Assembly: GCA_964577435.1 (NCBI GenBank)
Contig: CAZNZD010000002.1
Coordinates: forward strand, 27,642 to 91,641
Origin: an uncultured Clostridia bacterium
GTDB lineage: Bacteria; Bacillota; DTU025; MWDF01
Direction of reading: 5' to 3'
DNA length: 64,000 nucleotides
This document shows, piece after piece, positions 14,517 through 50,710 of this stretch (the first letter of the stretch is position 1; the number at the start of each line of letters is the position of its first letter). The notes under the pieces are model-generated. The model saw nothing but the letters and a program-made list of their open reading frames with translations. It made no database searches and was not told where the DNA came from. Made by a program: the position numbers and the translations under genes.

Positions 14517-14550
14517 AGAGGGGGCGGGTTTCCGCCCTCTTCTGCTTTTT
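14517..14550 (+). terminator. Rho-independent terminator of the ABC operon
   Basis: agagggggcggg-ttt-ccgccctct followed by tctgcttttt. Confidence 0.6.
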
Positions 14551-14630
14551 CCGGAAGGGAGGGCGGATAATACAGCAGCCTGCCCGGAAGCCCGGCAGAG
14601 GAGGTCTGATCAGATATCCCGCACAAGGGG

Positions 14631-14666
14631 CAAAAAGAAAGCGGGGCACCCGGAAGGATGCCCCGC
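14631..14666 (-). terminator. Rho-independent terminator downstream of the TM2-domain gene
   Basis: gcggggca-cccggaagga-tgccccgc, followed on the minus strand by tttctttttg. Confidence 0.5.
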
Positions 14667-14681
14667 AAGTCGGCTGTTGGA

Positions 14682-15077
14682 CTACTTGATTGCCATCATC
14701 AGGTCGTAGTTGTAAGCCAGGGTCCTCTTCTTGATGCTGAACAGGTCGATTATCCACCAGATTCCGAAGCCGCCGCCGGTCACTACCTTTATGACGCCCA
14801 TCACGGTGTCATCGAGGAAGAAGCGGTCGATGCCTACGAGGGCCCATATTAGCATCTGGTCGGGATCCCTGTAGTCTTCGTTAATAGCCGCGGTGAATGA
14901 GGTCTCGCTGAGTCCGGCCAGCTTTGTCTTGACGCTTTCAAGGACCGACGCGTCGAACCAGTCGCCCTTGGCGGCCACGAACGCGTTGATGTTCTCGGTC
15001 CTGGTTGCCGCTGCGACTGAGAGGGGGAATACGAGCAGCATCGCGGCCAGCACCATGAAGGTTACTGTCTTCTTCAT
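14682..15077 (-). CDS. Secreted TM2-domain protein
   Basis: Signal peptide, then WALVGIDRFFLDD..GVIKVVTGGGFGIWWIIDLF, which matches the TM2 domain consensus. Confidence 0.6.
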   Translation of the reverse strand: MKKTVTFMVLAAMLLVFPLSVAAATRTENINAFVAAKGDWFDASVLESVKTKLAGLSETSFTAAINEDYRDPDQMLIWALVGIDRFFLDDTVMGVIKVVTGGGFGIWWIIDLFSIKKRTLAYNYDLMMAIK

Positions 15078-15159
15078 CTAATCGCCTCCCAATATAATGG
15101 CTATAAGCATATATTACCCCTTAGGCCCTCAGATTCCTTCAAGCCTCCAACTAAATGAT

Positions 15160-15189
15160 AAAAAAAGGGGAGCGGTCGAAACCGCTCCC
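15160..15189 (-). terminator. Rho-independent terminator after the CUT2 ABC operon
   Basis: On the minus strand: gggagcgg-tttcga-ccgctcccc followed by ttttttt. Confidence 0.6.
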
Positions 15190-15210
15190 TTACAGCCGGG
15201 ATTGTGAGGA

Positions 15211-35108: not shown

Positions 35109-35139
35109 CGAGACGAACCACCTTCAAGGAGGTCGACCG

Positions 35140-37989
35140 GTGAACAGATACAAGCTTCTTGCCATAGACGACAACGCCGACAACCTGCTCTCGCTGAGGG
35201 CAGTGCTTGAGGATTTCCTGCCGGACATAGCCTTCCTGACCGCAACCGACTGGGAAAGCGGAATAGAGACAGCCTTGCAGGAGGTGCCGGACGCCATACT
35301 CCTGGACATCGTCATGCCAGGGATGGATGGATATGAGGTCTGCAGGAGGCTTAAAGCCGAGGAGAAGCTAAAGGGGGTGCCTATAACCTTCCTTACGGCC
35401 TGGAAGACCAGCCCCGATGTGCACAAGCTGGCGATTGAGGCCGGCGCTGAGGGCTTCCTTACGAAGCCGTTCGACGAAGGCGAGCTGATTTCTCAGATCA
35501 AGGCCATGTTCAGGCATAGCTCGGCCGCCAAAGAGGAGAAGCTCGAAAAGGAGAGGCTCAGCGACGAGGTGATCAAGGCGACCGCGGAGCTTAGGCGCGA
35601 GCTGGCCGAAAGGCGTGAAGCCGAGATCAGGCTGCAGCTATCGAACGAAAGGCTCATGAGAAGCCAGCAGACGATGTCCGGCCTGCTGATCAAGCTTCGT
35701 AAGGAGAACGAGGCCCGGATCGAAAGCGAGAGGCACTTCAGGGACCTGGCGGATAACGGGATGGCGTTGGTGTGGACCTCCGGACTTGACATGAAGTGCG
35801 ACTACTTCAACAGGCCATGGCTGGAGTTCACTGGAAGGAAACTGGAGCAGGAGATGGGGGATGGCTGGATTACCGGGGTGCATCCCGATGACGCGGAGGA
35901 ATGTGGAAGCACCTACAGGAAAGCCTTCGATGGCAGGGAGAAGTTCAGCATGACCTACAGGCTCCGAAGGCACGACGGGGCTTATCGGTGGCTGGTCGAC
36001 GAGGGCACGCCGAGGTATGACGCCGGAGGGGAGTTCATCGGCTATATCGGGCATTGCCTGGATATCACTGACGAGCTGGAGGCAAGGGAGATAGCCCAGA
36101 AGAGCGAGGAGAAGTTCCGCCTGTTGGTCGAAAGCGCCCCTGTAGGCATCTTCATCCAGACTGAAAGGCGTTTCAGCTACCTGAATCAGAACGCGCTCAG
36201 GATGTTCGGGGCGGAGTCAGAGGACCAATTGATCGGTACGCCGATACTAGACAGGTTCCATCCAGATTATCACAAGACGGTGAACGAGAGGATCCATGAG
36301 CTCAACAATAAGAAGCATGATGTGCCTAACATCCAGGAGATGTGCCTTACTGTCGATGGCGAGCCGTTCTTCGTGGAAGTATCGGCAGTCCCCATCAACT
36401 TCGATGGCAAGGACGGGGCGCTGGTCTTCTTCAATGACATCTCAGCAAGGAAAAGGGCGGAGGCCCTACTTGAGGAGGAGAGGCTCAAGCTTGTCAGCAT
36501 GACCAATATGCTCAATACACTGCTTGACAGCATACCAGACGGCATCCTTCTGCTTGACAGGGAAGGCAGGATCGAATGGGCCAACACGGCGGCCAGGAAC
36601 CTGGTAGCGGACGGAAGGCAGCTCGCTGAAGGCGGCAACTGCAACAGCTTCCTTTTCGGTTCGGATGGGCCTTGCGATGAATGCCCGCTAGAGGGAGTCT
36701 TCGACAGGGGAGAGCAGGTCAACTGGGAACGCCTTCTGGATAACGGGTCCTCCTGGGACATAAGGATAGTGCCGATCGCCGATGCCACGGGCAGCTACCA
36801 CCGGGCAATCGAGATCATCCGGGACGTGACAAAGCAGAGGAAAACGGAGGAGCAGCTGAGGCAATCTCAGAAGATGGAATCGGTAGGAAGGCTCGCTGGA
36901 GGCGTGGCACACGATTTCAACAACCTGATAACGGCAATATTAGGCAACTGCGAGATGGCGATGATGGACCTTGCCGAAGGCGACGCGGTCAGGGAATACC
37001 TCCGTGATATCCGCAAAGCCGGGGAGAACGCCTCAGGCCTTACAAGGCAGCTTCTGGCATTCAGCAGGAGACAGGTGCTTCAGCCCGAGGTGATGAGCCT
37101 GAACCAGGTGATCGAGGAGAACCGCAGGATGCTCTCCCGGCTCATGAGAGAGAACATCAGCTATGAGGAGAAGCTTGAAAGCGGGCTCTGCCCCATAGAG
37201 GCAGACAAGAGCCAGGTGGAGCAGGTCCTGATGAACCTCGTCATCAATGCGTCCGATGCCATGCCGGACGGCGGCACGCTCACCGTCGAGACTTTCGGCA
37301 CCGACATAACCCCGGGGCAAATCGCAGCGCAAGGCGAGATGGAACCCGGAAGGTATGCAGTCCTTGCGGTAAGCGATACCGGTATCGGCATGAGCGAGAG
37401 CACCATGAAGCAGATCTTCGAACCTTTCTTCACAACCAAGGACAAGGAGAAGGGGACCGGCCTCGGGCTTTCCACCGTCTATGGAATAGTGAACCAGAGC
37501 AGGGGCTACATCTCGGTGTACAGCGAGATAGGCAAGGGCAGCACTTTCAAGGTCTACCTGAGATGTGTGGACAAGCAGGTAGCCACGGAAACCGGCAGGC
37601 AGACTGAAGCCCTTTCCGGAAACGAGCGGATCCTTCTGGTGGAAAACGACGTCGGCGTCAGGACCATCATCGCAAAGCAGCTGAGGCAGTTCGGATATAA
37701 GGTGACGGAAGCGCCGGACGGCGAGGAGGGTTTGAGGATCTTCAAGGTTGATGCTGACGGCTTCGACCTGATACTGACTGATGTGGTCATGCCCAGGCTC
37801 GGGGGAAGGCAGATGGCCGAGGAGGCGGCAAAGCTTCGGCCCGGCCAGAAAGTCCTGTACATGTCGGGGTACACCGAAAACAGCATTGTCCATAACGGCG
37901 TGCTTGAGGCGGGAGTGCAGTTCATCGGGAAGCCTTTCACCGCGGAGGGGCTTGCAAGGAAAGTAAGGTCGATCCTGGACTGGGCATGA
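35140..37989 (+). CDS. Hybrid histidine kinase with REC, three PAS domains, HisKA, HATPase and REC
   Basis: N-terminal receiver (LLAIDDNADN...LLDIVMPGMDG), repeated PAS cores, HDFNNLIT H-box and a C-terminal receiver. The likely start is GTG 35140 after AAGGAGG. Confidence 0.8.
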   Translation: MNRYKLLAIDDNADNLLSLRAVLEDFLPDIAFLTATDWESGIETALQEVPDAILLDIVMPGMDGYEVCRRLKAEEKLKGVPITFLTAWKTSPDVHKLAIEAGAEGFLTKPFDEGELISQIKAMFRHSSAAKEEKLEKERLSDEVIKATAELRRELAERREAEIRLQLSNERLMRSQQTMSGLLIKLRKENEARIESERHFRDLADNGMALVWTSGLDMKCDYFNRPWLEFTGRKLEQEMGDGWITGVHPDDAEECGSTYRKAFDGREKFSMTYRLRRHDGAYRWLVDEGTPRYDAGGEFIGYIGHCLDITDELEAREIAQKSEEKFRLLVESAPVGIFIQTERRFSYLNQNALRMFGAESEDQLIGTPILDRFHPDYHKTVNERIHELNNKKHDVPNIQEMCLTVDGEPFFVEVSAVPINFDGKDGALVFFNDISARKRAEALLEEERLKLVSMTNMLNTLLDSIPDGILLLDREGRIEWANTAARNLVADGRQLAEGGNCNSFLFGSDGPCDECPLEGVFDRGEQVNWERLLDNGSSWDIRIVPIADATGSYHRAIEIIRDVTKQRKTEEQLRQSQKMESVGRLAGGVAHDFNNLITAILGNCEMAMMDLAEGDAVREYLRDIRKAGENASGLTRQLLAFSRRQVLQPEVMSLNQVIEENRRMLSRLMRENISYEEKLESGLCPIEADKSQVEQVLMNLVINASDAMPDGGTLTVETFGTDITPGQIAAQGEMEPGRYAVLAVSDTGIGMSESTMKQIFEPFFTTKDKEKGTGLGLSTVYGIVNQSRGYISVYSEIGKGSTFKVYLRCVDKQVATETGRQTEALSGNERILLVENDVGVRTIIAKQLRQFGYKVTEAPDGEEGLRIFKVDADGFDLILTDVVMPRLGGRQMAEEAAKLRPGQKVLYMSGYTENSIVHNGVLEAGVQFIGKPFTAEGLARKVRSILDWA

Positions 37990-38052
37990 TTTCTTGAAAG
38001 GCGCAGATATTGGCCGGACCAAGTCACAATCTCGATCAAGGGGGAGTCCAAG

Positions 38053-38877
38053 GTGAGGATTGAGGATTTCGTGCACGATAAGGAACCTGTCAGAATCGAC
38101 GACGGCATATTCTGGGTAGGATACGCCGACGAGAACAGGGGCCTGCACTGCAACCCATACCTTGTCGTCGAAGGCAGCGAGGCCGTGCTCATCGATGGAG
38201 GCAACCGGGACGACTTCAGCAATGTGATGTTGAAGATACTGAGGACCGGCCTTGACCCGTCGCAGATAACAAGGCTCATCTACCAGCACTACGACCCCGA
38301 TCTATGCGGAAGCCTTCCGCAGCTTGAAAGCATAATCGACAGCGATTCCCTGAGGATAATCTCGCATGAGGAGAACAACGTCTTCATCCATTACTACTCC
38401 TCGAGGACGGCAAAGCTCGACTACCGCGGGATGGGAAGCCATTTCGACTTTGCCACAGGCAGGAGGCTGGAATTCTACGCCACTCCCTTCTGCCATCATT
38501 CGGGAAGTTTCGTTACTCTGGATACTAAGACAAGGACCCTGTTCTCAAGTGATCTCTTCGGCAGCTTCGACAATACATGGTCGCTCATTCTGGAGCTGAC
38601 GGACCGGTGCAGGCAGTGCGAGGACATCAGCGCATGCCCGAATAGCAAGGAAAGATGCCCCTTGTCAGGCATAATCAGCTTCCATCAAAGGATTATGACT
38701 TCGAACAAGGCCCTTTCCTATTCGCTCGATGTCATCGAGCGCCTTGATGCCGACAGGATAGCCCCTCAGCACGGAAGCGTGATCGCGACCAAGGAAGATG
38801 TAAAGGCCGTGATACGCCACCTTAGGGCGATCAAGGACGTCGGCATAGACCTTCTGATGGCGGGGGAGCCAAGATGA
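38053..38877 (+). CDS. Standalone flavodiiron-protein-like MBL-fold domain (ODP-like di-metal sensor domain) with no flavodoxin domain
   Basis: DDGIFWVGYADENRGLHCNPYLVVEGSEAVLIDGG...YQHYDPDLCGSLPQL aligns to the FDP N-terminal domain. The motif is HxDxD-L rather than the canonical HxExDH. Confidence 0.55.
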   Translation: MRIEDFVHDKEPVRIDDGIFWVGYADENRGLHCNPYLVVEGSEAVLIDGGNRDDFSNVMLKILRTGLDPSQITRLIYQHYDPDLCGSLPQLESIIDSDSLRIISHEENNVFIHYYSSRTAKLDYRGMGSHFDFATGRRLEFYATPFCHHSGSFVTLDTKTRTLFSSDLFGSFDNTWSLILELTDRCRQCEDISACPNSKERCPLSGIISFHQRIMTSNKALSYSLDVIERLDADRIAPQHGSVIATKEDVKAVIRHLRAIKDVGIDLLMAGEPR

Positions 38878-40130
38878 ACTGCCATGACGTCAAGCTGAAG
38901 GATGCCTTAAGGGAGGACTCTGGGTCAAGCGCCGGCATGCTGTCGTATGCCCTCGAAAGCTTCGCCAGGGAGATCGACTATGCAAACCAGAACGAGCTGA
39001 TGAAGAAGCTCATCTTGGAGCATTCCCTCATTGCCAGGAGCCTCGAGCTACTTAACGATAGGCTCACTACGAGCAGGCAGATGCTTGCCGAGGCGCAGAA
39101 GATAGCCCTTCTGGGCCGCTGGGACATAGACCTTGCCCAAGGAAGCATTACATGGTCGAAGTCCATGTACGACATACTTGAGCTGGACAGGTCCGTGCCT
39201 GAGTCCTCGGAGCTCTTCTTCTCCTTCGTCCACCCTGAGGACCTAGAGGAGGTAAAGAGACTTTATAAGGAGATGTTCTCGCCAAAGGAGCCGTGGACGA
39301 CGAGATACCGCCTGCTTCTGAGGGACGGGAAGGTGAAGTGGGTCCACCTTAGGTTCTTTACGGCCCAGGATCAGTCCGGGAGGATAAGCAAGCTGTATGG
39401 CACCATACAGGATATAACCGAGATGAAGAAGGTCGAAGACGAGCTGGAAAGGTATAGCCATCAGCTGGAGCAGCTGGTTGAGGCGAAAGTCCAGGAGGTC
39501 ACGGCCTCGCAGATGGCGACCATCTATGCGCTTATCAAGCTCTCGGAATCCAGGGACGACGAGACGGGGGCCCATATCGAGCGGACTGCGAGCTTCTGCC
39601 GACTGCTTGCCGAAAGGGCAAGGACCCTTCCTGAGTACGCGGGGGAGATCGACGACCATTTTACTGAGACAATCTATAAAGCTAGCCCCCTGCACGACAT
39701 AGGGAAGGTCGGCATACCGGACAGCATCCTGCTTAAACCCGGCAAGCTGACAGTTGAGGAGTTCGCCGTGATGAAGACTCACGTGCAGATAGGCTACGAA
39801 ACCCTCGCCAAAGTCGGCCAGCAGTATGACAGGAACGAGTTTCTGAAGATGGGAATGGATATCGCCCTGAATCATCACGAGAAGTGGGACGGCAGCGGTT
39901 ACGGCAGGGGGCTAAAAGGCAGCAGCATACCTTTGTCTGCAAGGATAATGGCGCTTTCGGACGTCTATGATGCGCTTCGCTCAAAAAGGGTTTACAAGGA
40001 GGCGTTCTCTCATGAGAAGAGCTTGCAGATAATGAGCTCAAGCAGGGGAAGCCACTTCGACCCGCTGCTTGTCGATATCTTCCTCCGGCATCATGAGGAA
40101 TTGATGGCCCTGTACGAATCCATCAAGTGA
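38874..40130 (+). CDS. PAS-domain HD-GYP-family phosphodiesterase with the GYP motif degenerate to GYG
   Basis: HDIGKVGIP and HHEKWDGSGYGRGLKG. It overlaps the upstream stop by 4 nt. Confidence 0.8.
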   Translation: MNCHDVKLKDALREDSGSSAGMLSYALESFAREIDYANQNELMKKLILEHSLIARSLELLNDRLTTSRQMLAEAQKIALLGRWDIDLAQGSITWSKSMYDILELDRSVPESSELFFSFVHPEDLEEVKRLYKEMFSPKEPWTTRYRLLLRDGKVKWVHLRFFTAQDQSGRISKLYGTIQDITEMKKVEDELERYSHQLEQLVEAKVQEVTASQMATIYALIKLSESRDDETGAHIERTASFCRLLAERARTLPEYAGEIDDHFTETIYKASPLHDIGKVGIPDSILLKPGKLTVEEFAVMKTHVQIGYETLAKVGQQYDRNEFLKMGMDIALNHHEKWDGSGYGRGLKGSSIPLSARIMALSDVYDALRSKRVYKEAFSHEKSLQIMSSSRGSHFDPLLVDIFLRHHEELMALYESIK

Positions 40131-40574
40131 TTCATAAGACAGTGAAGGCCCCTGTAGACCGCAGATCCCGCTTGCCATGACCGACCATTGCCGGAGCGCT
40201 GATCCTGACGGATAAGCGCTGCTATAGGCATCTGGTACATTTGGCGTGATATTATACCATATTGCGATAACCCCGCAGCCTTGCGGGATCTCTCTAAGAT
40301 CAGCAACCCGCTTCAGGCATCGCTGAAGTCATATGCCCCGGACTTGACTTAGATGGCATCATACTCGCGCGTAGTTATTGCGCATATCACCACATTTATA
40401 AGTATATGGGCATCCGATTGAGATGCGCGCAGCAGCTCGCCGTCGTTCAAGCTGGAAGCTATTTACAGAATATGATTGAAGTTTTTAAATAAACAGGTTA
40501 TCAGATAGGTTCAGATATTGAAAGTACTTGCTTTCTTAGCATTCGGGAATAAAATGTAGGAGTTAGGAAAGAAG

Positions 40575-42479
40575 ATGTTCTCTATGTCTGTCACGGGCTT
40601 CTTAAGGAAGAGCTTAAGAGCGAAGATCCTGCTGGGCTACATGATAATCATCGGTGTGCTCATGATGGCAGGCTTATGGGTGATCCTTAGCACCTTGGCC
40701 ATCGACAGGGCTGTTGAAGCCATCACCATAGACAGCTATAAAAGCCTTGCCGCCGTCCATGCGATGCTGAACTCGCTTGACGAGTTGAGCATGGCTCAGT
40801 CCAGGATGATGATAGATTCCGAATCGCAGGGGATCGATCAAGTCTACATGAAGGTCGATAGATCCTTCAGAGGCAGCCTTTCGACAGCGCAAGGAAATAT
40901 CACGTATCCCGGGGAGAGGGAAGCCCTGCAGGAGATCTCCGCTCAGTACGACAGCTTCATGCGCAGCGTGCTAAGAATCAGCACTTTGATGCAGGTAGTC
41001 AGCTCCGCCGAGGCGGTTGCCGAATACTCTGCCGTCACTGCCACATATTCTAAGATCACAGCCGCGCTGGAGGACCTATATTCCATCAACAACGAGTATA
41101 TGGTCAAGTCCACGAACAATGCCAAGGAGATCGCAGCCAGGGCGATCTCCTCGATTGTGCTTGTCAGCATCGCTGGACTGGGTATCGCGCTTTATCTGGG
41201 GGTTACTGTTTCCAACATCATCATCAAGCCGACCATGCTCCTGACTGAAAGCGCCAGGAAAGTGGCACAAGGAGAGCTTGGGATAATAGCCAGCGTCGGG
41301 TCCGAAGATGAGATCGGCATGCTGGCCAATGAATTCAACGCCATGACCGGGAAGCTTAAGGAGTATGAGGAAGCAAATATTGACAGACTGGTAACCGAGC
41401 AGAGGAAGTCGGAGGCAATAATCGGCTCTATCGCGGACCCGATAATAGTCCTGGATAAGGGCATGAGATGCCTCAGGATCAACCAGGCAGCCCAGTCTGT
41501 CTTCGGGCAGAGCCAGGAGGAAGCCCTGGGAAAGCACGTCCTTGAGCTGATAGATAGCCGCATCGCCCTGGAAGCCGCCCAAAAGTGCCTTGAGCATAAC
41601 AGGGTGCTGTCATTCAGCGGCACAGACAGGATCATCGAGCTTCCTGACGGGGAGAAAAGGAAGTACTACAGGATTGAGGCCGCCCCCTTCGAGGACATCG
41701 GGGCAAAAGCCCAAGGTGTAATCCTCTATCTCGCCGATGTTACCTACTTCAAAGAGGTAGACAAGCTGAAAACCGATTTTGTCTCTACCGCATCGCACGA
41801 GTTCAGGACTCCCCTTGCATCGATGGTTATGGCTTCGGAACTGCTGCTAGAAGAGAAAGCCGGAATACTGACCGATAAGCAGAGAAGGCTTACGCAAATC
41901 ATAAGGGAAGACTGCGCCAGGCTGCAGGAGCTGGTAAGCGAGCTGCTGGATATTTCAAAGCTCGAATCGGGGAGGATGGACTTCAACATGAAGGCCGTGA
42001 AGCTGGAGAATGCGTTCTCTTCATCTGCGTTCTCGCTCCTGCCCCTGTTCAAGGACAAGGGCGTGGAGCTGATAATCGATGATTCCTCCGCGATGCCGGC
42101 TGTCTATGCGGACCCGAAGAAGCTGCCGATAGTGCTTGGAAACTTGCTTTCAAACGCACTTAGGTATACTGACGCGGGCGGAAGCGTGAGAATCAGCACG
42201 GAGGATCTGGGCGATTCAGTGCGCATAAGCATAACCGACACGGGTATCGGCATCCCTGAGAACCTTCAGTCGAGGGTGTTCGAGAGGTTCTTCCAGATGA
42301 AAGGGGACGCCAGCCACCAAACAGGCGGGGCAGGGCTGGGATTGGCCCTGGTCAAAGAGACGGTGGAGGCCATGGGCGGGGGAGTGGAGCTAAGAAGCAA
42401 GCAGGGTGAAGGATCGCAGTTCAGTTTCACGCTGAGGAAAGCTTCAGAACATGATAAGGATGCCGGTATCAGGCCATGA
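40575..42479 (+). CDS. Sensor histidine kinase with a periplasmic helical sensor, HAMP, PAS, HisKA and HATPase
   Basis: H-box SHEFRTPLAS, N-box NLLSNALRYT, G-boxes DTGIGIP and GGAGLGLALV. Confidence 0.8.
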   Translation: MFSMSVTGFLRKSLRAKILLGYMIIIGVLMMAGLWVILSTLAIDRAVEAITIDSYKSLAAVHAMLNSLDELSMAQSRMMIDSESQGIDQVYMKVDRSFRGSLSTAQGNITYPGEREALQEISAQYDSFMRSVLRISTLMQVVSSAEAVAEYSAVTATYSKITAALEDLYSINNEYMVKSTNNAKEIAARAISSIVLVSIAGLGIALYLGVTVSNIIIKPTMLLTESARKVAQGELGIIASVGSEDEIGMLANEFNAMTGKLKEYEEANIDRLVTEQRKSEAIIGSIADPIIVLDKGMRCLRINQAAQSVFGQSQEEALGKHVLELIDSRIALEAAQKCLEHNRVLSFSGTDRIIELPDGEKRKYYRIEAAPFEDIGAKAQGVILYLADVTYFKEVDKLKTDFVSTASHEFRTPLASMVMASELLLEEKAGILTDKQRRLTQIIREDCARLQELVSELLDISKLESGRMDFNMKAVKLENAFSSSAFSLLPLFKDKGVELIIDDSSAMPAVYADPKKLPIVLGNLLSNALRYTDAGGSVRISTEDLGDSVRISITDTGIGIPENLQSRVFERFFQMKGDASHQTGGAGLGLALVKETVEAMGGGVELRSKQGEGSQFSFTLRKASEHDKDAGIRP

Positions 42480-42865
42480 AGAAGATACTTGTCGTCGAGG
42501 ACTCGAGAAATATTGCTGCGATGATATCGCTTTGCCTGGAAGAGCAGGGATACGCGGTCCTTTTGAGCGAAGACGGCATCGAAGCTGTCCGCTCTGCCTT
42601 CGAAGATGCTCCGGACCTCGTGCTTCTGGACCTTGTATTGCCCAGGATGAGCGGACTGACCGTTCTAAGGGCGCTGCGGGACAATCCTATGACTTCAGGT
42701 ATGCCTGTTATAGTAATCAGCGCACGTGCGCAGAAGGAAGACATCCAGGAAGCATACAGCCTTGGGGCAGATGATTATCTGGTGAAACCTTTTACGCCTT
42801 CGGAGCTGACCGAGCGAATATCTAGCCTCTTAAGGAGGGATATGGATGAGAATCCTAATAGTTGA
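42476..42865 (+). CDS. Single-domain CheY-like response regulator
   Basis: KILVVEDS...LLDLVLP...DYLVKPF. It overlaps the kinase stop by 4 nt. Confidence 0.8.
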   Translation: MKKILVVEDSRNIAAMISLCLEEQGYAVLLSEDGIEAVRSAFEDAPDLVLLDLVLPRMSGLTVLRALRDNPMTSGMPVIVISARAQKEDIQEAYSLGADDYLVKPFTPSELTERISSLLRRDMDENPNS

Positions 42866-43538
42866 CGATGATGCGAACATAAGGGCGATGATAAGGGAAT
42901 GCCTTGATGAACCAGGCAATATAATTGTCGAGGCCTCGTCGGGGGAAGAGGCTGTGGCCGAGGTCGAAGCCGCATCGGCTCCCTTCGATGTAGCGCTGCT
43001 CGACATGAAGATGCCAGGCATGGGCGGATTGCAGGCTCTAAGGCAGATGAAACGCCTGAGGCCGGACCAACAGGTCGTGATGATCACAGCTTACGGGACG
43101 GTAGAGACGGCGGTTGAGGCATTGAAGCTGGGAGCAGTGGATTACCTTAGGAAGCCTTTCACCACCAAGGATCTGAGGGAGATCGTCAAGCAGGTCTCCT
43201 CCAGGCCCGATTTCAAGGACATTGTCGGCCAGGGGGAGTCGGTAAGCAAGAAGACTGAGCGCAAGGACCTGATCTCCGCGGTGAAGAGCCTGCTTGTCTA
43301 CGGAAAAGCCGAGGAAGCTATGGCGCTTCTGCAGAGGATGGTGGGGGAGAACCCTGATGACCCAGAGGCATACAATCTTCTCGGGCTGCTCATGGAGGTC
43401 AAGGGGGACGTCCTGTCGGCCCAGAGGATGTACAGGGCTGCGCTCAGCCTGAATCCGAACTATGAGCCCGCAAGGGAGAACCTGGCGAACACGACCGAGA
43501 TGAGGTACCGCAATCAGAACACATTGAAGATCAGGTGA
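42846..43538 (+). CDS. Response regulator receiver fused to TPR repeats
   Basis: RILIVDDD...LLDMKMPG...DYLRKPF followed by a TPR-like C-terminus (AYNLLGLLMEVKGD..AQRMYRAALSLNPNYEPA). SD AAGGAGGG, with a 20-nt overlap of the upstream gene. Confidence 0.75.
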   Translation: MRILIVDDDANIRAMIRECLDEPGNIIVEASSGEEAVAEVEAASAPFDVALLDMKMPGMGGLQALRQMKRLRPDQQVVMITAYGTVETAVEALKLGAVDYLRKPFTTKDLREIVKQVSSRPDFKDIVGQGESVSKKTERKDLISAVKSLLVYGKAEEAMALLQRMVGENPDDPEAYNLLGLLMEVKGDVLSAQRMYRAALSLNPNYEPARENLANTTEMRYRNQNTLKIR

Positions 43539-43570
43539 GCTGGGCATCAGCCTGGACAGGGGTGGTTTTA

Positions 43571-44005
43571 ATGTATATCGTCATCGCGGGATGTGGCAGG
43601 CTGGGATCCTTCCTTGCTGCATCCCTATCCGGGAAGGGCCATGATGTTGCTGTGATCGACAGCGATTCAGGGAATTTCTCCAGCTTGACCTCAGGGTTCG
43701 ATGGGATAACCGTAACCGGCGTCCCGATCGATGAGGACATATTAAGAAAGGCCGGAATCGAGAAGGCGGATATCATGGCCGCCGTGACTCAGGATGATAA
43801 TCTCAACATCATGGCGGCCCAGATAGCCGAGAAGATCTTCAAAGTGGGGAAGGTGCTTGTCCGGATAGGAGACCCGCAGAAAGAGGAGTTCTTCGCCAAG
43901 AATTACGGATTGAGCACAGTATCGCTGATAATCCTGGGCTCGGACTATATAGAAAGGGTGATTGGGACCTCCCCAGTAAGAAACGGCGAGGTGAACGCCA
44001 GATGA
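43571..44005 (+). CDS. TrkA-N NAD-binding domain protein (K+ transport regulatory subunit)
   Basis: MYIVIAGCGRLGSFLA is a Rossmann GxGxxG motif. ORF track is 43535..44005. ATG 43571 follows AGGGGTGG. Confidence 0.7.
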   Translation: MYIVIAGCGRLGSFLAASLSGKGHDVAVIDSDSGNFSSLTSGFDGITVTGVPIDEDILRKAGIEKADIMAAVTQDDNLNIMAAQIAEKIFKVGKVLVRIGDPQKEEFFAKNYGLSTVSLIILGSDYIERVIGTSPVRNGEVNAR

Positions 44006-44661
44006 ATATCGTCATTGTCGGTGGAGGCAAGGTCGGCTACTACCTTGTAAAGACCCTATCCGAATCCGGGAATCACAGCATAACGCTTCTTGAGAAGGAC
44101 CCGGAGCGCTGCATGGACATCGCGGAGGAGCTGGACTGCCTGGTCATCCGGGCAGACGGGACGGATATCGATGCGCTTGCCCAGGCCAGGGCTAGTGATG
44201 CCGATGTCCTGGTGGCGGTATCGGGCCAGGACCAAGATAACCTGGTTTCCTGTCAGATAGCCAAGACGAAATATGGGATAGGCAAGACCATAGCCAGGGT
44301 GAATAACCCCAAGAACCATGACGTCTTCAAGCTCCTGGGAGTTGACACCACCGTCAGCAGCACGGGAATCATCGCAGAACTCATCGAAGGGGAGCTCTCC
44401 GCAGGTGCCACGCAGACGCTTCTTATGTTCGAAGGCGGGGAGCTTGAGCTGATGGAGGCAGAGGTGAAGGAGAAATCCAGATTGGCCGGGAATGCCATCT
44501 CCCGCCTTGGCATACCTGCCGATTGCATAGTTATTGCCATCTACAGGGCAGGGCACTTCCTGATACCCACGGGTTCCACTGAGCTTATGCCCTGCGACCG
44601 CGTGATGGCTCTGACATTGTCGAGGAACAGGAAGAGCGTGGCCTCCTTTTTCTCAAAGTAG
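44002..44661 (+). CDS. trkA: TrkA/KtrA potassium uptake protein with TrkA-N and TrkA-C domains
   Basis: MNIVIVGGGKVGYYL Rossmann motif plus a C-terminal RCK_C region. It overlaps the upstream stop by 4 nt. Confidence 0.8.
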   Translation: MNIVIVGGGKVGYYLVKTLSESGNHSITLLEKDPERCMDIAEELDCLVIRADGTDIDALAQARASDADVLVAVSGQDQDNLVSCQIAKTKYGIGKTIARVNNPKNHDVFKLLGVDTTVSSTGIIAELIEGELSAGATQTLLMFEGGELELMEAEVKEKSRLAGNAISRLGIPADCIVIAIYRAGHFLIPTGSTELMPCDRVMALTLSRNRKSVASFFSK

Positions 44662-44670
44662 GGGATGAAA

Positions 44671-44796
44671 ATGAGCAAAGGGACTATTAGGAGATATAAC
44701 TGGTTAGGCGGGCTCATCTCTGAGGCCTCCTATGCTGTGCTTTGCATGCTGATTGGAGCAGCAGCCTGCCTGCTGGCGGCAGCTGCCCTGAAGTGA
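44671..44796 (+). CDS. Candidate 41-aa single-TM micro-protein between trkA and trkH
   Basis: ATG sits 10 nt after the trkA stop and follows AGGGGATG. The product MSKGTIRRYNWLGGLISEASYAVLCMLIGAAACLLAAAALK is hydrophobic. Its stop is 11 nt before the probable trkH GTG start. Confidence 0.3.
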   Translation: MSKGTIRRYNWLGGLISEASYAVLCMLIGAAACLLAAAALK

Positions 44797-44807
44797 GGGT
44801 TAATGCA

Positions 44808-46316
44808 GTGACTACGAAGCTTTCTGACATCAGGGTGATCTCATATTATACAGGCAGGGTGATCCAGGGGGTTGCCCTTCTTATGGCGATTCCGATGGCC
44901 ACTTCGGCCTTGTATGGCGAATGGAGCTGTGCGCTGGATTTCCTAATCGGCGGGCTTGCTTCATGGTGCATAGGCAGGCTGCTGCAGTTTGCTGGCAACC
45001 GCGAGGGACAGCTGGGATGGATTCACGGCATGGTGGTATCGTCAATCTCATGGATAATCGCCATGGCCCTAGCAGCGATCCCATATGCGCTGAGCGGGCA
45101 CTTCCTGAGCTATCTTGATGCTATGTTCGATGCGATGAGCGGCTTCACTACCACAGGATTGGTGCTTGCACAGGATATTGACCACCTCTCGATGGGCATG
45201 AACATGTGGAGGCACATCATCACCTTCGTAGGAGGGCAGGGGATGGTGGTGCTGGCCCTGACCTTCCTGTTCAAGACATCGGCGGGCGGATACAAGATGT
45301 ATGTCGGGGAGGGCAAGGATGAGCGGCTTATGCCCAGCGTCCTCCACACCTCCAAGGAGATCTGGAAGATCAGCCTGATTTACATGTGCATGGGCACAGC
45401 GGCCCTATGGCTTGCAGGGCTGTACATAGGACTTGAACCACTAAGGGCGTTCTGGCATGGCCTCTGGATCTTCATGGCAGCATGGAGCACAGGAGGATTC
45501 GCCCCCCAGTCTCAGAACATACTCTTCTACCATAGCCTCGTTTACGAGGTAGTTACAGTCATCATCTTCATAATAGGCTCGCTGAACTTCGCCCTGCATT
45601 ACTCCGTCTGGAGCGGAGACAGGAAGGAAACGTTCAGGAACATCGAGACTGCCTCCATGCTGGCGACGCTGACCATCCTTGGCGCCCTTGCTGCTTACGC
45701 ATTAGGAAAGACCGGGGCATATACGTCAGCGCTTTCACTTTTCAGGAAGGGATTCTATAACCTGGTCTCGGGGCACACCACGACCGGATTCATGACAATC
45801 TACGCGCAGCAGTTCATCAATGAGTGGGGAGACGTAGCGCTGTGGGCGCTTTGCATCGCCATGCTTATCGGAGGAAGCGCCTGCTCGACTGCCGGCGGTT
45901 TCAAAGGATTGAGGGTCGGCATCGTCTTTAAGGAACTGATACACGAGGCGCGCAGGCTGATGGCCCCGGAGAGCGCCGTCATAGTGCAGAAATATCGGCA
46001 TATAAAGGATACTGCGCTGGACGATAAGGTCGTGAAGTCGGCTATGATCGTGATAATCCTGTACATCGCAACTTTCTCATTGGGAACGCTAGGAGGGCTG
46101 CTGTCCGGATACAGCGCGCGCGAAGCAATTTTCGAAGCGGCCTCTGTAACGGGCAATGTGGGATTGTCTTGCGGTGTGACTGTCCCGGGGATGCCCGATA
46201 TGCTGAAGGTCCTTTACATCCTGATCATGTGGGTGGCAAGGCTTGAGTTCATGTCTGTGATCGCTTTGGTAAGCTTCGCGCTGACTGGTTCCAACGGAAG
46301 GAGGGCAAAGGCATGA
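44808..46316 (+). CDS. trkH: TrkH/KtrB-family K+ transporter membrane subunit
   Basis: Polytopic ORF with repeated M-P-M selectivity-like segments. ORF track is 44742..46316. GTG 44808 after GAGGG is equally plausible. Confidence 0.75.
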   Translation: MTTKLSDIRVISYYTGRVIQGVALLMAIPMATSALYGEWSCALDFLIGGLASWCIGRLLQFAGNREGQLGWIHGMVVSSISWIIAMALAAIPYALSGHFLSYLDAMFDAMSGFTTTGLVLAQDIDHLSMGMNMWRHIITFVGGQGMVVLALTFLFKTSAGGYKMYVGEGKDERLMPSVLHTSKEIWKISLIYMCMGTAALWLAGLYIGLEPLRAFWHGLWIFMAAWSTGGFAPQSQNILFYHSLVYEVVTVIIFIIGSLNFALHYSVWSGDRKETFRNIETASMLATLTILGALAAYALGKTGAYTSALSLFRKGFYNLVSGHTTTGFMTIYAQQFINEWGDVALWALCIAMLIGGSACSTAGGFKGLRVGIVFKELIHEARRLMAPESAVIVQKYRHIKDTALDDKVVKSAMIVIILYIATFSLGTLGGLLSGYSAREAIFEAASVTGNVGLSCGVTVPGMPDMLKVLYILIMWVARLEFMSVIALVSFALTGSNGRRAKA

Positions 46317-46804
46317 AAGTGACCCTTCTAGCCTTGATCATAATTGTATTCAGCACTTTTGCTGCCTCTGGATCGGAGTTGGTATCCTGCCAACAGCTAG
46401 TTAACGAGGCCGGAGCGTGGGATGGCAAGATGGTCTCCATATCAGGGGAAGTCGTAGGTGACATCCTGCATGTCTCTGGTCACGTCTGGCTGAACGTAAA
46501 CGACGGTACCAATGCGATCGGCGTCTGGGGGGATTCGGGCCTCGTGGAGGAATTCAGGATCGTGCCTGGAAGATACGAAACTATAGGTACGAGACTCAAC
46601 ATAGAGGGGGAGTTTCACCGCACCTGCAGCCTGCATTCAGGCGAGACTGACATTCATCTGACGAAGGCGGCCCTGCTGAAGGATGCGGAGGAAGTGGCTC
46701 ACCCTGTGAACCGGGGAAGGCTGATAATTGCGTCCTCTCTGTTTGCCTTGAGCATGCTGCTTGCGCTCCCCGGCAGATTAAGAAGGAGGATTAGGCCCCG
46801 ATAA
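46313..46804 (+). CDS. Hypothetical secreted or C-terminally anchored protein, possibly OB-fold
   Basis: Signal peptide MKVTLLALIIIVFSTFAASG and a C-terminal TM helix (LIIASSLFALSMLLALP). It overlaps the trkH stop (ATGA). Confidence 0.45.
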   Translation: MKVTLLALIIIVFSTFAASGSELVSCQQLVNEAGAWDGKMVSISGEVVGDILHVSGHVWLNVNDGTNAIGVWGDSGLVEEFRIVPGRYETIGTRLNIEGEFHRTCSLHSGETDIHLTKAALLKDAEEVAHPVNRGRLIIASSLFALSMLLALPGRLRRRIRPR

Positions 46805-46982
46805 TGCGAAAGGTGTTCCGCCATTACGGAACTGCACTGTGACTGCACTCGAAACGTAAGCCCTCGTACATGCGCCATAAATGGCTGTATGATTAGATAG
46901 AGCATTCAGTGCCGATTGCAATCCATCAGTGCCAGGATATTCAGCATGATGATCGCTGCTTAGAATGGGAGGTGTGGTTCAA

Positions 46983-48167
46983 TTGGGAAGACGCCTTGCG
47001 TTATACGGTATAGCTGCACTTATACTGGCTGAAGCCGTCCTCGGCGCAGCCGCGCTCGCGACGGGAGCCTCCGCTTCATCTCAAGCGACGGCTCAGGAGG
47101 AGGCTACTGTAAGGACCGACCTTCCACCCGACATCCTCGCCTGGCTCTCGTTGATGCCGGAGCTTGCCAATGCGAAAGCCCCTTCATGGCTTAAAGTAGG
47201 CACAAAGATCACATACCATGTAATGTCAGCCGCCAGGGAGGGTGACAACAGCCCTGCAGGAGAGAGCATCGTCCAGTACGATGTCGTCTCTAACGACGGT
47301 GCCACGGTATTGGCAGCCGCAGCGGTGCACGTAATCGGAAGCGGAGGGTCATTAGCCGCACCACGCGACACCGGCTTCATTGCCGGCGTGCCCGGCGTGG
47401 GAGATGCATGGATGGATCCTGCCGCGCTGGCGAAGGCGGAGAAGCATGCAACCAAGGACCTGACAATCACGCACACCTCGACCAACGTCAACGGCGTCGC
47501 TACCAAAGCAGTCAGGTTCGAATACATCCAGGGGGCGTCACGCAGCGTGAGCGTATTCGACGAGGCGAAGGGGATGCTTCTGTATAGGATCCAGGCATCG
47601 GGCAATATGGATACTGCGAAGCAGAGCAGCATAGTCTCGGAGTTCATGTCAGTAAGGCAGCCTATGGCCGCATGGACCGGAGGGACGACCCCCGCCTGGG
47701 CGCAAGCTGGGAAGCTGCTCAGGTATGAGGGCGGCGTTACCGTGAACGTGATGTACGGTTCGCCGGGCACTCAGCTTCCACTAGTGATGCTCTGCACCGT
47801 AACCAATTCCTCCCCTGCCGGGGTGCTGGTGAAATGGGAGACCTACATCAGCGGGGCCAAGACTGAGGAACGCTACTCGCTGTACTCCTCGGCGTTGCCC
47901 TCGGGCGGCATCTTCCTTCCTTCTGCTGCCCTCAATACGTTGAAAGCGGGCAAGGTACTTGATGCGGACCCGATAACAGGCATGGCGGTATCGGTGGCTC
48001 AATCGCTGATAAGCTCTGACGGCATGCAGCTTCTTGCTATTGTTCATGAGGGCAGAAGCTTCAAGCGCGTGTACGGTTATGACAGGCAGACCGGGATGCT
48101 CTCCTATTACAGCGAAACCTCCCAAGACGGCACGGCATCAGTCAAGACGGAGCTTAGGCTCAGATAA
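46983..48167 (+). CDS. Secreted hypothetical protein, paralog C of the 3299/4458 family
   Basis: PSWLKVGTKITYHV...IVQYDVVSNDG parallels PGWLVPGLRVVYKV...YLIYDVVDVKG. The C-terminal GYDRQTGMLSYYSE parallels SLKTGYMVRMHQLP. TTG 46983 follows GGGAGG. Track ORF is 46965..48167. Confidence 0.5.
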   Translation: MGRRLALYGIAALILAEAVLGAAALATGASASSQATAQEEATVRTDLPPDILAWLSLMPELANAKAPSWLKVGTKITYHVMSAAREGDNSPAGESIVQYDVVSNDGATVLAAAAVHVIGSGGSLAAPRDTGFIAGVPGVGDAWMDPAALAKAEKHATKDLTITHTSTNVNGVATKAVRFEYIQGASRSVSVFDEAKGMLLYRIQASGNMDTAKQSSIVSEFMSVRQPMAAWTGGTTPAWAQAGKLLRYEGGVTVNVMYGSPGTQLPLVMLCTVTNSSPAGVLVKWETYISGAKTEERYSLYSSALPSGGIFLPSAALNTLKAGKVLDADPITGMAVSVAQSLISSDGMQLLAIVHEGRSFKRVYGYDRQTGMLSYYSETSQDGTASVKTELRLR

Positions 48168-48205
48168 AGCCGGACCGATGAAGATGCCTTCCGTCAGGAA
48201 GATGA

Positions 48206-48715
48206 TTGCTGATAAGCTTGATTTGGGAATTCGATAAGGCGGGGGACATCTTGGTGGGCAGTAGCGACGGCAGGATAACAAGGCGCGCCGAGCGGCGGGA
48301 TGCAGGGGATCTGACCAGGCTGGCGTCAGCTCTCTGGCCGGATCACGACCTGGCGGAGCTCAGCGCGGAGATGGATGGCATCCTTATGGGCGATGAGGAG
48401 GCGGCTTTCATCTGCATGTACGGAGACAAGCCGGCCGGCTTTGCCCATTGCACCCTCAGACGGGACTATGTGGAAGGGTCTGAGGAAAGCCCTACGGCCT
48501 ACCTGGAGGGCATCTTCGTGGTACCGGAGCATCGGGGCGAGGGCATTGCGTCAGAACTGCTGATGCGTTGCGAGGGCTGGGCTTTGGAGATGGGGTGTGC
48601 CGAAATCGCCAGCGATTGCGAGCTGGGAAACCTTGATAGCGAGAGGTTCCACCTCCGCTCGGGCTTCTCTGAGGCTAATCGCGTAATTTGCTTCATCAAG
48701 AGGCTCAAAACTTAG
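48206..48715 (+). CDS. GNAT acetyltransferase, aminoglycoside 6'-N-acetyltransferase-like
   Basis: LWPDH...EGIFVVPEHRGEGIASELL is a GNAT motif A. Confidence 0.6.
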   Translation: MLISLIWEFDKAGDILVGSSDGRITRRAERRDAGDLTRLASALWPDHDLAELSAEMDGILMGDEEAAFICMYGDKPAGFAHCTLRRDYVEGSEESPTAYLEGIFVVPEHRGEGIASELLMRCEGWALEMGCAEIASDCELGNLDSERFHLRSGFSEANRVICFIKRLKT

Positions 48716-48789
48716 AATCTAGCGGGTAAGCGCTGATTGTATGAGCTAAGCAGATGTATCATCGATCGGCTTGGGCGACGGAGGTACTA

Positions 48790-49122
48790 ATGGGAAAGAC
48801 GTTCATCATAGGATCGAGGGAGCTAGGAAAAGGGGACGACAGGCTGGGCGGCCTGCTGATGGCGAGCATGCTTAGGGTCATGGGGGATTCGGAGGATAAG
48901 CCGGAGACAATCATATTCATGAACTCCGGTGTCTATCTGCTATGTGAAGGATCGCAGGTATTGGAACATCTGAAGAGGCTGGAGGGGCAAGGGGTAGAGC
49001 TTCTTGCCTGCACGACCTGCCTTGAGTATTTCGACCTTGCCGACAAGCTAATGGCCGGCAAGCCTACGACAATGTTTAAAACGGTCGGAAAGATGATGGA
49101 GACGGAGACGGTATTCATCTGA
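48790..49122 (+). CDS. DsrE/DsrF-like (YedF C-terminal-like) sulfur-relay family protein
   Basis: 111 aa. ATG 48790 follows GGAGGT. It has a TCLEYF-type conserved Cys region. Confidence 0.5.
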   Translation: MGKTFIIGSRELGKGDDRLGGLLMASMLRVMGDSEDKPETIIFMNSGVYLLCEGSQVLEHLKRLEGQGVELLACTTCLEYFDLADKLMAGKPTTMFKTVGKMMETETVFI

Positions 49123-49576
49123 AAGTAGTCAATGAGCAATGACGCCCATCACGCATTTTCCGCCAATCGTGCCTGCACTGAAGAAGTATGCCGCCCCGGT
49201 TAAGGGGCGGCTTTCGTGGCAGGGGTTCAAGGGAGGAAACCCATGTCCCTGCCACACTCTAAGGAGGGGACCGAGGATCCTCGACTCGGTCCTTTATGAA
49301 GAGCACACCTATATAATAAGTGAATTTTTGCACTAGTGGCCATTTTATTCATGGTTGTTTTTATGTACAACTGAACCTGGCTGTATGAATGCTGAACCGC
49401 ACAAGTGCACACTCTGGTGATTAGGGCAACAGCATAAAAACACATAGTCTCAGGACGGATGGGGGTTTAGTACCATGTCCGGGCATTCAGGAATCCTGCC
49501 CGAAGAACCAGGCGGGACTTCTCTGACCGAATTAGAAGAGAGGGACTACCCCTTTGTCTTGGGTCAGTCCTTTCGG

Positions 49577-50653
49577 CTATCCTGAAGAGGAAATGAACTC
49601 CTCAAAGTTTTCGAAGCGCGCGAGCGGTCCTACCTTCTCGATTTCCGAGACGATGGCATGCTCCGCCCTGCGGCAAGCTGACGCGAAGCCCCTGAGATCG
49701 CGCCAATCGAAGCTTCCTAGCACTTCCAAGCCCAGCTGAAAAACCTCTTCATCGAGCACCCGCTGAAGGCAGACGCCGGCAATGAATGCCTTGCGGCAAT
49801 CAGGAGCGCTGCCTTCGCAGCTTCGCCAGACCTTATTAAAAGTAGAGACAGTCTCCTCATAGAAGCTGACGAGCTCTTCATGATTGATTGGCTCGCCGCC
49901 CTTTTGCAGGACTGCCGCTGCAAGAGAACCATGCTCGGGCACATCCAGGTCAACTTCGCCAAGCCTGAGGAACCCCCTGCAGCAGGAAGCCATCTTCTCA
50001 GCTGAAGCCTTCAGGCTAGCGCCGTCGGATGCCGCGACTATCCCGTCATAAGCCTCAAGCAGACCCGGAGGAAGGGCATCCATGCGGCTCAGGTCATCAA
50101 AGTGGCTTTTAAGCCCTCTTCTGAAGTAGGTCCTGTTCTCATAAGCAACCGCATCTGAAAGGCATAACAGCATCCTGCCTGCAAGCAGCCTGCATGCACC
50201 GACTTGCTGCGCTGCTCTCAGTTCGTTCAAGTAAACAATACCTTTACTATACGATGCCAATGCCCTCTCGTGCATGAAACCGGAATTCCGGAGATTGCTG
50301 TCCATCTTCTCCCTCAAGCTAAGGAATCGCTTCCCATCGTCAGGAGTCGATGCAAAGGCTATCTCGGAATCGCCCAGAAGCGGGGCCAGGGGCTCACGAA
50401 ACTCTGAGAGCCCCTCGACCCTCCCCCACCTCATCGGAAAGAGGTCAAATCCGACATTTTCTATGATGAAGGTCCTGCTGAGCCCGAATCCCCGCTCTGT
50501 TTTTGGAATGAAGAAGAAGTCGACGTCTGACAGCTCATCCGCCGTCTTGTTCACATATGAGCCGTATACGGCAAGGATGGCGACATCGTCCCTGTACTCC
50601 CTGCTCACCTTATCAACGGCCCACTCCAGCACCCTGTCGTTCCTGCTCTTCAT
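49577..50653 (-). CDS. Nucleotidyltransferase-domain protein with a roughly 250-aa C-terminal helical domain (ANT/KNTase-like)
   Basis: AVYGSYVNKTADELSDVDFFFI is a Pol-beta-type GS..D.D motif. Track ORF is 49577..50689. An internal ATG at 50653 follows GGGGGG. Confidence 0.55.
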   Translation of the reverse strand: MKSRNDRVLEWAVDKVSREYRDDVAILAVYGSYVNKTADELSDVDFFFIPKTERGFGLSRTFIIENVGFDLFPMRWGRVEGLSEFREPLAPLLGDSEIAFASTPDDGKRFLSLREKMDSNLRNSGFMHERALASYSKGIVYLNELRAAQQVGACRLLAGRMLLCLSDAVAYENRTYFRRGLKSHFDDLSRMDALPPGLLEAYDGIVAASDGASLKASAEKMASCCRGFLRLGEVDLDVPEHGSLAAAVLQKGGEPINHEELVSFYEETVSTFNKVWRSCEGSAPDCRKAFIAGVCLQRVLDEEVFQLGLEVLGSFDWRDLRGFASACRRAEHAIVSEIEKVGPLARFENFEEFISSSG

Positions 50654-50710
50654 GGACGCCCCCCGATTATTAATAGCAACCGACTGCACGGGATATTGCG
50701 CGGGCGCGGG

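Follow-up and report, generated by a model that had tools for sequence, protein, structure and literature searches.

We describe a chain of eight genes on the plus strand at positions 40575-46804 of a 64,000-nt stretch of DNA from an uncultured Clostridia bacterium (contig CAZNZD010000002.1; the whole stretch is called the window below). In brief, the chain encodes a membrane sensor histidine kinase, a CheY-like receiver, a response regulator composed of a receiver and TPR repeats (REC-TPR), the two RCK subunits and the membrane subunit of a Trk-type K+ importer, a 41-aa micro-protein and an OB-fold membrane protein. On balance we lean towards the view that this is a signalling-plus-transport operon, in which REC-TPR tunes K+ uptake by protein contact and the micro-protein and the OB-fold protein serve as accessory subunits of TrkH.

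The eight open reading frames (ORFs) form a tight chain in the ORF listing and their domains were assigned by Pfam, which confirmed the positions and the domain calls of a first-pass annotation of this DNA. The features are as follows.

40131..40574, plus strand: non-coding region upstream of the kinase gene, from sequence reading; A+T-rich near its 3' end.
40575..42479, plus strand: membrane sensor histidine kinase, 634 aa (Pfam).
42476..42865, plus strand: CheY-like stand-alone receiver, 129 aa (Pfam Response_reg, E 2e-29).
42846..43538, plus strand: REC-TPR response regulator, 230 aa (Pfam REC and TPR).
43571..44005, plus strand: TrkA-N-only RCK subunit, 144 aa (Pfam TrkA_N; PDB 3L4B_A and 2G1U).
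44002..44661, plus strand: TrkA subunit with N and C domains, 219 aa (Pfam TrkA_N and TrkA_C; PDB 3L4B_C).
44671..44796, plus strand: predicted micro-protein, 41 aa, or 43 aa from 44665 (position-defined ORF, comparative genomics).
44808..46316, plus strand: TrkH membrane subunit, 502 aa, or 507 aa from the GTG at 44793 (Pfam TrkH, TIGR00933).
46313..46804, plus strand: predicted OB-fold membrane protein, 163 aa (AlphaFold model and Foldseek).

The case for a functional link comes from gene order. One genome per species was scanned with an alignment of REC-TPR, together with tblastn searches using the window proteins. This gave 56 full-length REC-TPR loci in species-representative genomes of Bacillota, Thermodesulfobacteriota, Planctomycetota, Cyanobacteria, Chloroflexota, Actinomycetota, Spirochaetes and other phyla. 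The genes for TrkA-N, TrkA and TrkH follow REC-TPR on the same strand in 37 of the 45 loci with at least 3.3 kb of downstream sequence, and in 33 of these 37 the TrkA-N start lies less than 250 nt from REC-TPR. Directly upstream of REC-TPR, and ending less than 500 nt away, an ortholog of the kinase gene is found in 46 of the 48 loci with enough upstream DNA; these orthologs align over more than 1.5 kb, with 31-40% identity where listed. The order persists across phyla at 30-45% protein identity, and we take this as strong evidence of a functional link between the two-component and Trk genes. By these comparisons, chance alone falls far short of explaining the arrangement.

The complete chain is kept in several relatives. 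All eight genes are present in the same order in locus L084 (REC-TPR 70% identical) and in loci L086 and L087 (62%), with an ORF of 40-47 codons between trkA and trkH and a gene of 167-170 aa after trkH. An uncultured Clostridia genome (L007), with a TrkH that is 58% identical, has the same eight-gene order. The first-pass annotation had treated the two-component and Trk genes as one unit and would have given it up had synteny and the micro-ORF been absent from relatives; no such absence was found in L084, L086 or L007, and the unit is conserved across phyla. The genes flanking the chain in L084 and L086 differ on both sides, and the conserved unit therefore runs exactly from the kinase gene to the gene of the 163-aa OB-fold protein.

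A few REC-TPR loci depart from this order. In Desulfamplus (L039) a gene for a KimA-type K+ transporter (PDB 6S3K, E 7e-59) lies 111 nt past REC-TPR, and the REC-TPR locus of L009 abuts genes for KdpD, KdpC and KdpB. Two cyanobacterial loci (L045 and L047) have a CPA2-Usp antiporter gene 1-2 kb off, L042 has its Trk set 5 kb away, and L051 and L052 have no transporter near REC-TPR. Counting the exceptions that lie beside other transporters together with the 37 Trk loci, a tie to K+ or cation transport is seen in approximately 42 of 45 genomes. The KdpD-like protein of L009 (708 aa; 10683-12809, minus strand) is encoded convergently with the REC-TPR locus, with KdpC and KdpB next. It matches models for the KdpD sensor kinase (residues 33-551) and for a 'KdpD-like non-kinase potassium sensor', both below cut-off.

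The adjacency could also be inherited or merely convenient co-location, with the two-component system controlling something else. Such co-location would fit L051 and L052, and also the TrkH loci that carry the micro-protein, most of which are without the pathway. In Bordetella, trkAH lies beside plrSR with no link to the phenotype tested (PMC13001219). Co-location is hard to reconcile with an order kept over many phyla at 30-45% identity, with same-strand spacing of less than 250 nt in 33 of 45 loci. Furthermore, the kinase and REC-TPR pathway is joined to two TrkH subfamilies, approximately 30% versus 40-80% identical to the window TrkH, and once to KimA; such conservation is rarely neutral. 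On this ground we argue for a functional tie and not for shared history alone, and consider simple co-location improbable.

The kinase has a transmembrane helix, an extracytoplasmic segment of approximately 150 aa and a second transmembrane helix, followed by HAMP, PAS, HisKA (E 3e-18) and HATPase_c (E 1.3e-28) domains according to Pfam. The H-box, SHEFRTPL, is readable in the translation. The best NCBIfam matches are models of the PnpS, WalK, NblS and PhoR types, each below cut-off, and the NtrY model is not among the 25 best matches listed. The CheY-like protein consists of a REC domain alone (Pfam), in which E8/D9, D52, S82 and K104 were assigned by eye from the translation. A stand-alone receiver gene between the kinase and REC-TPR genes is found only in the clade of the window and in nine Bacillota or Clostridia-type loci.

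In REC-TPR a flexible linker connects the receiver to a pair of TPR repeats capped by a further helix. The AlphaFold model (predicted local distance difference test, pLDDT, 86.7) has a standard receiver and a disordered linker at residues 121-138. Residues D7, D8, D53, T81 and K103 are invariant across an alignment of 42 sequences, which holds 32 invariant columns spread across the receiver and TPR halves. The best 120 relatives, of 217-264 aa, align over 92-100% of the query at E values of 1e-44 or lower, and the alignments mark REC-TPR as a well-defined family of approximately 230 aa. Sequence and fold searches of PDB matched the receiver half only, the closest being the receivers of Spo0F, NtrC1 and NtrX, and gave no solved structure with the entire layout. 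A library search with the TPR half alone was flooded by generic multi-repeat TPR proteins and was uninformative on family size and fusions.

No DNA-binding domain and no helix-turn-helix (HTH) was found in REC-TPR by Pfam or in its AlphaFold model, and Pfam gave an AAA+ or HTH domain in neither receiver protein of the window. The cluster holds no gene for an Hpt or Spo0B-like phosphotransferase. Since the kinase and REC-TPR genes adjoin in 46 of 48 loci, we infer that the two proteins are phosphotransfer partners.

The transport genes have the layout of a two-subunit Trk system, with a TrkA-N-only gene, an overlapping gene for a TrkA with N and C domains, and an adjacent trkH. TrkA-N matches PDB 3L4B_A and 2G1U (E 3e-24) and is the counterpart of TM1088A; TrkA matches 3L4B_C (E 1.6e-31), is the counterpart of TM1088B, and corresponds in NCBIfam to positions 230-445 of long TrkA. 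TrkH matches the Vibrio TrkH structures 3PJZ and 4J9U (E 1e-31 over residues 19-489). In Thermotoga maritima, the TM1088A and TM1088B genes have overlapping stop and start codons and their products form a 4+4 hetero-octameric gating ring, required together with the TrkH protein TM1089; two-subunit Trk systems are termed commonplace by the authors (PMC4380455). As in the window, a TrkA-N-only gene (approximately 143 aa) is overlapped by a gene for a TrkA with N and C domains (approximately 218 aa), and trkH comes next. The searched text of PMC4380455, on which this comparison is based, mentions no response regulator at the Thermotoga locus. The matches mark the TrkA-N and TrkA proteins of the window as subunits of a predicted gating ring of the TM1088A/B type on a TrkH pore.

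The ring genes vary among the relatives. Within the TrkH subfamily that carries the micro-protein, L088 (6571-7836) and L089 (6525-7862) have a single ORF of 421-445 aa across both ring genes, and in other loci the first ring subunit is approximately 200-237 aa long, in L145 (5728-6333) with a weak TrkA_C match. This variety suggests repeated splitting or fusion, and TrkA-N-only is not the sole form. In L007, the closest relative at genome level, an extra TrkA-like gene (11509-12009; 27% identity to TrkA) lies between the REC-TPR and TrkA-N genes, giving three RCK genes in a single operon. In the Desulfobacteraceae locus L030 the operon is followed (13258-15937) by a gene for a 213-aa protein without family match and by a second K+ system, made up of a TrkH/KtrB-like protein (455 aa) and a KtrA-like protein (218 aa); one signalling input may there serve two RCK-gated importers.

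Within the chain, overlaps of 4 nt join the kinase and CheY genes, the TrkA-N and TrkA genes (44002-44005) and the TrkH and 163-aa OB genes, and the CheY and REC-TPR genes overlap by 20 nt. All of these had been claimed before, together with an overlap between the REC-TPR and TrkA-N genes, which did not stand. The GTG at 43535 was rejected as TrkA-N start in favour of the ATG at 43571, because it is the start called in identical and related contigs, because the protein then matches TM1088A from residue 2, and because a GGGTGG Shine-Dalgarno sequence lies 5 nt upstream of it. This start leaves 32 nt between the REC-TPR and TrkA-N genes, the largest gap of the chain; at 29-53 nt, the same junction also has the widest gap among the relatives. 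The micro-ORF, claimed to begin 10 nt after trkA, may start at the ATG at 44671 (41 aa, 9 nt past the trkA stop) or at the ATG at 44665 (43 aa, 3 nt past). For trkH, the start is either the GTG at 44793, in a GTGA overlap with the micro-ORF stop, or the GTG at 44808 with GAGGG ahead of it.

An AGGAG ribosome-binding site lies 12 nt 5' of the kinase ATG, and the region 40131..40574 that holds it is likely the promoter and leader of the operon. A promoter and terminator scan, in which match counts were not above those of shuffled sequence, gave no terminator-like site on the plus strand within the gene chain. The sole plus-strand promoter-like match near any junction of the chain (43553-43581) was discounted, its -10 box lying past the TrkA-N start codon. 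The whole chain would, on our proposal, be co-transcribed as a single transcript. Rfam found tRNAs only in the whole window and no riboswitch for cyclic di-AMP (c-di-AMP) or any other ligand, and eight loci without the kinase and REC-TPR pathway likewise gave no riboswitch and no RNA family besides tRNAs. With these results a riboswitch input, and an RNA element in the trkA-trkH spacer, were dropped.

The N-terminus of the 41-aa micro-protein is basic, its G-x3-E motif includes Glu18, and it has a single transmembrane helix. A metagenome scan with an alignment of TrkH of the window type gave 56 loci at 40-68% identity, and essentially all of those with upstream DNA have an ORF of 43-68 codons, mostly 43-55, between trkA and trkH. 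The 51 distinct peptides all share the basic N-terminus, the G-x3-E motif and a single hydrophobic helix that runs nearly to the C-terminus. The Glu is found in 51 of 52 peptides; among the 34 that were aligned it is invariant, as is the initiator Met, at a mean column identity of 30%. The sole trkA-trkH peptide without the Glu is that of L117 (688-816), which reads AIVTVALY there and could be either a real variant or a misjudged ORF. The ratio of nonsynonymous to synonymous substitution rates (dN/dS) is mostly 0.1-0.4, with a few values of approximately 0.6-1.0, for the closest micro-ORF pairs (at least 60% amino-acid identity); for more distant pairs it is saturated and uninformative.

Searches with the window micro-peptide alone (tblastn) returned same-species copies only, and the family emerged from the position-defined ORFs. 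A profile search gave 61 relatives of 41-60 aa without a Pfam domain, named 'hypothetical protein' with the exception of one JGI Sec61beta label. Two of these, one from an Acidimicrobiia according to the NCBI record, lie in a trkA-peptide-trkH-191-aa context. Neither Pfam nor NCBIfam gave a match to the micro-protein of the window. Trk operons from other phyla showed no comparable peptide ORF, and in most of them the gap between trkA and trkH is approximately -17 to +19 nt.

It should be noted that the 41 codons could be untranslated, the conserved trkA-trkH spacer being an RNA element or a remnant. The ORF is short, has no family match, and its translation is predicted from sequence alone. 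Against this, more than 50 diverged loci keep the reading frame open, its start codon is closely coupled to trkA and its stop codon to trkH, and the design of the peptide with its near-invariant Glu is constant at approximately 30% mean column identity. The dN/dS of 0.1-0.4 in most close pairs, the tRNA-only Rfam result and the Trk operons of other subfamilies that do without any spacer point the same way. We consider an untranslated spacer very improbable. The conserved Glu, the dN/dS values and the occurrence across the TrkH subfamily indicate a real gene under purifying selection, in line with the transmembrane micro-ORF noted by the first-pass annotation.

The earlier comparison with KdpF-like peptides holds for position and size and fails for sequence, as neither Pfam nor NCBIfam gives the micro-protein any likeness to KdpF. 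No kdp gene is present in the part of the window examined for it (35089-50689).

The 163-aa protein encoded after trkH had been called OB-like, which is supported by its predicted structure. In the AlphaFold model (pLDDT 84), a helix at the N-terminus, either signal or anchor, is followed by a five-strand barrel, a C-terminal transmembrane helix and a basic tail. Foldseek matched this model to the anticodon-binding OB domains of Asn, Asp and Lys tRNA synthetases and to Stn1, Ten1 and RPA (E 6e-6 to 1e-4, probability 1.00). The motifs GEVVGD, WLNVNDGTNA and H-x-GE-x-DIH recur in twelve relatives, and E46, N61, D64, N67, H108 and E111 are conserved in the OB ectodomain; searches of Pfam, NCBIfam and PDB sequences gave no match. 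From its topology, the OB domain is probably extracytoplasmic and held by the C-terminal anchor. The gene follows trkH in most loci of the TrkH subfamily with enough downstream DNA.

We suggest the following mechanism. The membrane kinase would read an ionic, osmotic or K+-related cue through its outside segment and cytoplasmic PAS domain, and phosphorylate REC-TPR; in the lineage of the window it would probably phosphorylate the CheY-like receiver too. As REC-TPR has no DNA-binding domain, we propose an output at the protein level, where its phosphorylation state probably alters binding by the TPR surface and so tunes K+ uptake. TrkA-N and TrkA would form the cytoplasmic gating ring on the TrkH pore, in the manner of TM1088A and TM1088B. 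The 41-aa peptide, with its Glu near the cytoplasmic end of the helix, and the OB-fold protein are probably accessory subunits in contact with TrkH.

Several observations weigh against this proposal. The TPR region of REC-TPR is a generic two-repeat TPR without diagnostic partner signature. Binding of a phospho-receiver to the RCK ring, which the first-pass annotation had put forward, is weakened by L039. KimA has no RCK ring, and a target specific to the ring does not fit a genome in which KimA follows REC-TPR. The only real gap of the chain, at 29-53 nt between the REC-TPR and TrkA-N genes, marks a module boundary. In Bordetella, plrSR-trkAH has 4-bp overlaps yet internal promoters (PMC13001219), and overlaps are therefore no proof of a single transcript. 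Among the micro-protein and OB type TrkH loci with 8 kb of upstream DNA, most are without kinase and REC-TPR, and only a few have the pathway (L093, L097, L102, L109 and L113). The importer therefore does not need the pathway. The pathway-linked Trk operons of other phyla, in turn, are without peptide and OB-fold protein. As the pathway and the micro-protein/OB set occur apart, the window combines two separable modules.

The main rival is that the pathway acts on transcription, with REC-TPR and CheY as intermediates, phosphate sinks or connectors to a DNA-binding regulator from elsewhere in the genome, or to a sigma-54 regulator of the NtrC type, that would set trk operon expression. In the Desulfobacteraceae locus L030, an NtrC-type sigma-54 REC-AAA+ regulator is encoded directly upstream of the kinase, and several loci of Thermodesulfobacteriota, Planctomycetota and Spirochaetes have a receiver domain approximately 3.4 kb upstream. 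These neighbours imply that the kinase may also, or mainly, act on transcription. The likeness of the REC-TPR receiver to Spo0F, NtrC1 and NtrX fits the same idea, and the precedents KdpDE and NtrYX/PlrSR are transcriptional. However, a DNA-binding regulator is absent from the cluster in the window, in the close relatives and in every Bacillota-type locus surveyed. The near-universal partner of the kinase (46 of 48 loci), and of Trk, is REC-TPR and not a sigma-54 regulator, and the cluster has no Hpt or Spo0B-like gene for a relay. We consider a transcriptional output rather unlikely. The earlier statement that no DNA-binding regulator is present is right for the cluster in the window according to Pfam and NCBIfam; for the family it has to be given up in view of the Desulfobacteraceae regulator.

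Two parts of the arrangement, the Trk ring and two-component genes beside trkAH, are already known. In alpha- and some beta-proteobacteria the NtrYX/PlrSR genes are followed by trkA and trkH, with a 4-bp overlap (PMC13001219). As in the window, a HAMP-PAS-HisKA membrane kinase and a regulator are encoded directly upstream of trkA in an operon-like manner, and the kinase shares with NtrY the order of transmembrane segments, HAMP, PAS, HisKA and HATPase; NtrY is not among the 25 best NCBIfam matches listed for it. NtrX/PlrR is a DNA-binding protein of the NtrC family, whereas the window regulator is a REC-TPR without AAA+ or HTH. Linkage to trkA is found for 27% of plrS homologs (PMC13001219), compared with 82% of the REC-TPR loci here.

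A precedent for control at the protein level comes from enterobacteria. According to Lee et al. (2007, PNAS), as related in PMC5024086, the phosphorylation state of EIIA-Ntr (PtsN) governs its binding to TrkA and alters K+ uptake in E. coli. As far as that account goes, PtsN exemplifies phospho-dependent control of Trk without transcription. By the same account it differs from the system proposed here in that it relies on histidine phosphorylation by the phosphotransferase system (PTS) and not on His-Asp transfer, belongs to another protein family and is not encoded with trk.

The KdpD/KdpE-kdpFABC system is also similar in that two-component genes lie next to K+ uptake genes and a small peptide is encoded within the transporter operon. 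KdpF is a small single-helix peptide of a P-type ATPase complex encoded by the kdpFABC operon, and KdpE binds DNA. The N-terminal domain of KdpD and the Trans_reg_C domain of KdpE are absent here according to Pfam and NCBIfam. Features that set the micro-peptide apart from KdpF are its invariant Glu within the membrane, its pairing with an OB-fold protein and its place between trkA and trkH.

Receiver-TPR regulators are listed in an archaeal census, where a protein-binding output is presumed and partners are not given (PMC5847659). The REC-TPR family of the window differs from these TPR-output regulators in being 230 aa long with two TPRs and a defined set of genomic partners. The first-pass annotation had not recognised the arrangement as described; this no longer holds for the TrkA-N/TrkA pair, a published ring (PMC4380455), nor for a two-component system next to trkAH (NtrYX). 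For the tie to REC-TPR and for both small membrane proteins it stands, as far as the searchable literature goes. In the searchable open-access literature we found no description of REC-TPR as near-constant partner of a dedicated kinase and K+ transporters, nor of a Glu-bearing micro-protein or an OB-fold partner of TrkH.

The chain lies in a signalling-rich part of the window. Upstream, at 38053-40130 (plus strand), a di-iron protein of the ODP family (274 aa, Pfam ODP E 1e-51) is encoded with a 4-nt overlap to a 418-aa PAS and HD-GYP protein. The pair resembles an oxygen or iron sensor with a cyclic di-GMP phosphodiesterase, and is a separate unit, since it is not beside the Trk unit in L084 and L086. 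Directly upstream of this pair, at 35089-37989 (plus strand), is a gene for a 966-aa hybrid kinase with REC, three PAS, HisKA, HATPase and REC domains, which makes this stretch of the window dense in signalling genes. Downstream, at 46965-48167 (plus strand) and 160 nt past the OB gene, lies a gene whose 400-aa product has a hydrophobic segment at its N-terminus and matches nothing in Pfam. This gene is probably outside the unit, since only same-species contigs (L001 and L002) retain it and L084 does not.

Fast control of K+ uptake in bacteria is at present ascribed to nucleotides that bind RCK rings (ATP/ADP, NAD and c-di-AMP), and in enterobacteria also to PtsN. We know of no accessory membrane partners like the peptide and the OB-fold protein for any Trk or Ktr system. 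Taking the survey as a whole, we put forward a broader proposal, tentatively and as a possibility: that an overlooked K+ pathway of many phyla exists, in which a kinase and a phospho-switched REC-TPR adaptor act directly on two-subunit Trk in most genomes and on KimA in at least one, and not via transcription or c-di-AMP, and that one TrkH subfamily forms a complex with a micro-protein and an OB-fold subunit. If true, a His-Asp pathway with a TPR adaptor would be a new type of input, by which a membrane sensor is wired to a transporter, and a function would be found for a receiver-TPR family that counts at least 120 full-length relatives. With the micro-protein and the OB-fold protein, accessory membrane subunits would be proposed for a Trk-type channel for the first time. 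For researchers on K+ transport and small membrane proteins, the 41-codon ORF also illustrates that a gene of a size usually dropped by annotation can be validated via comparative genomics alone.

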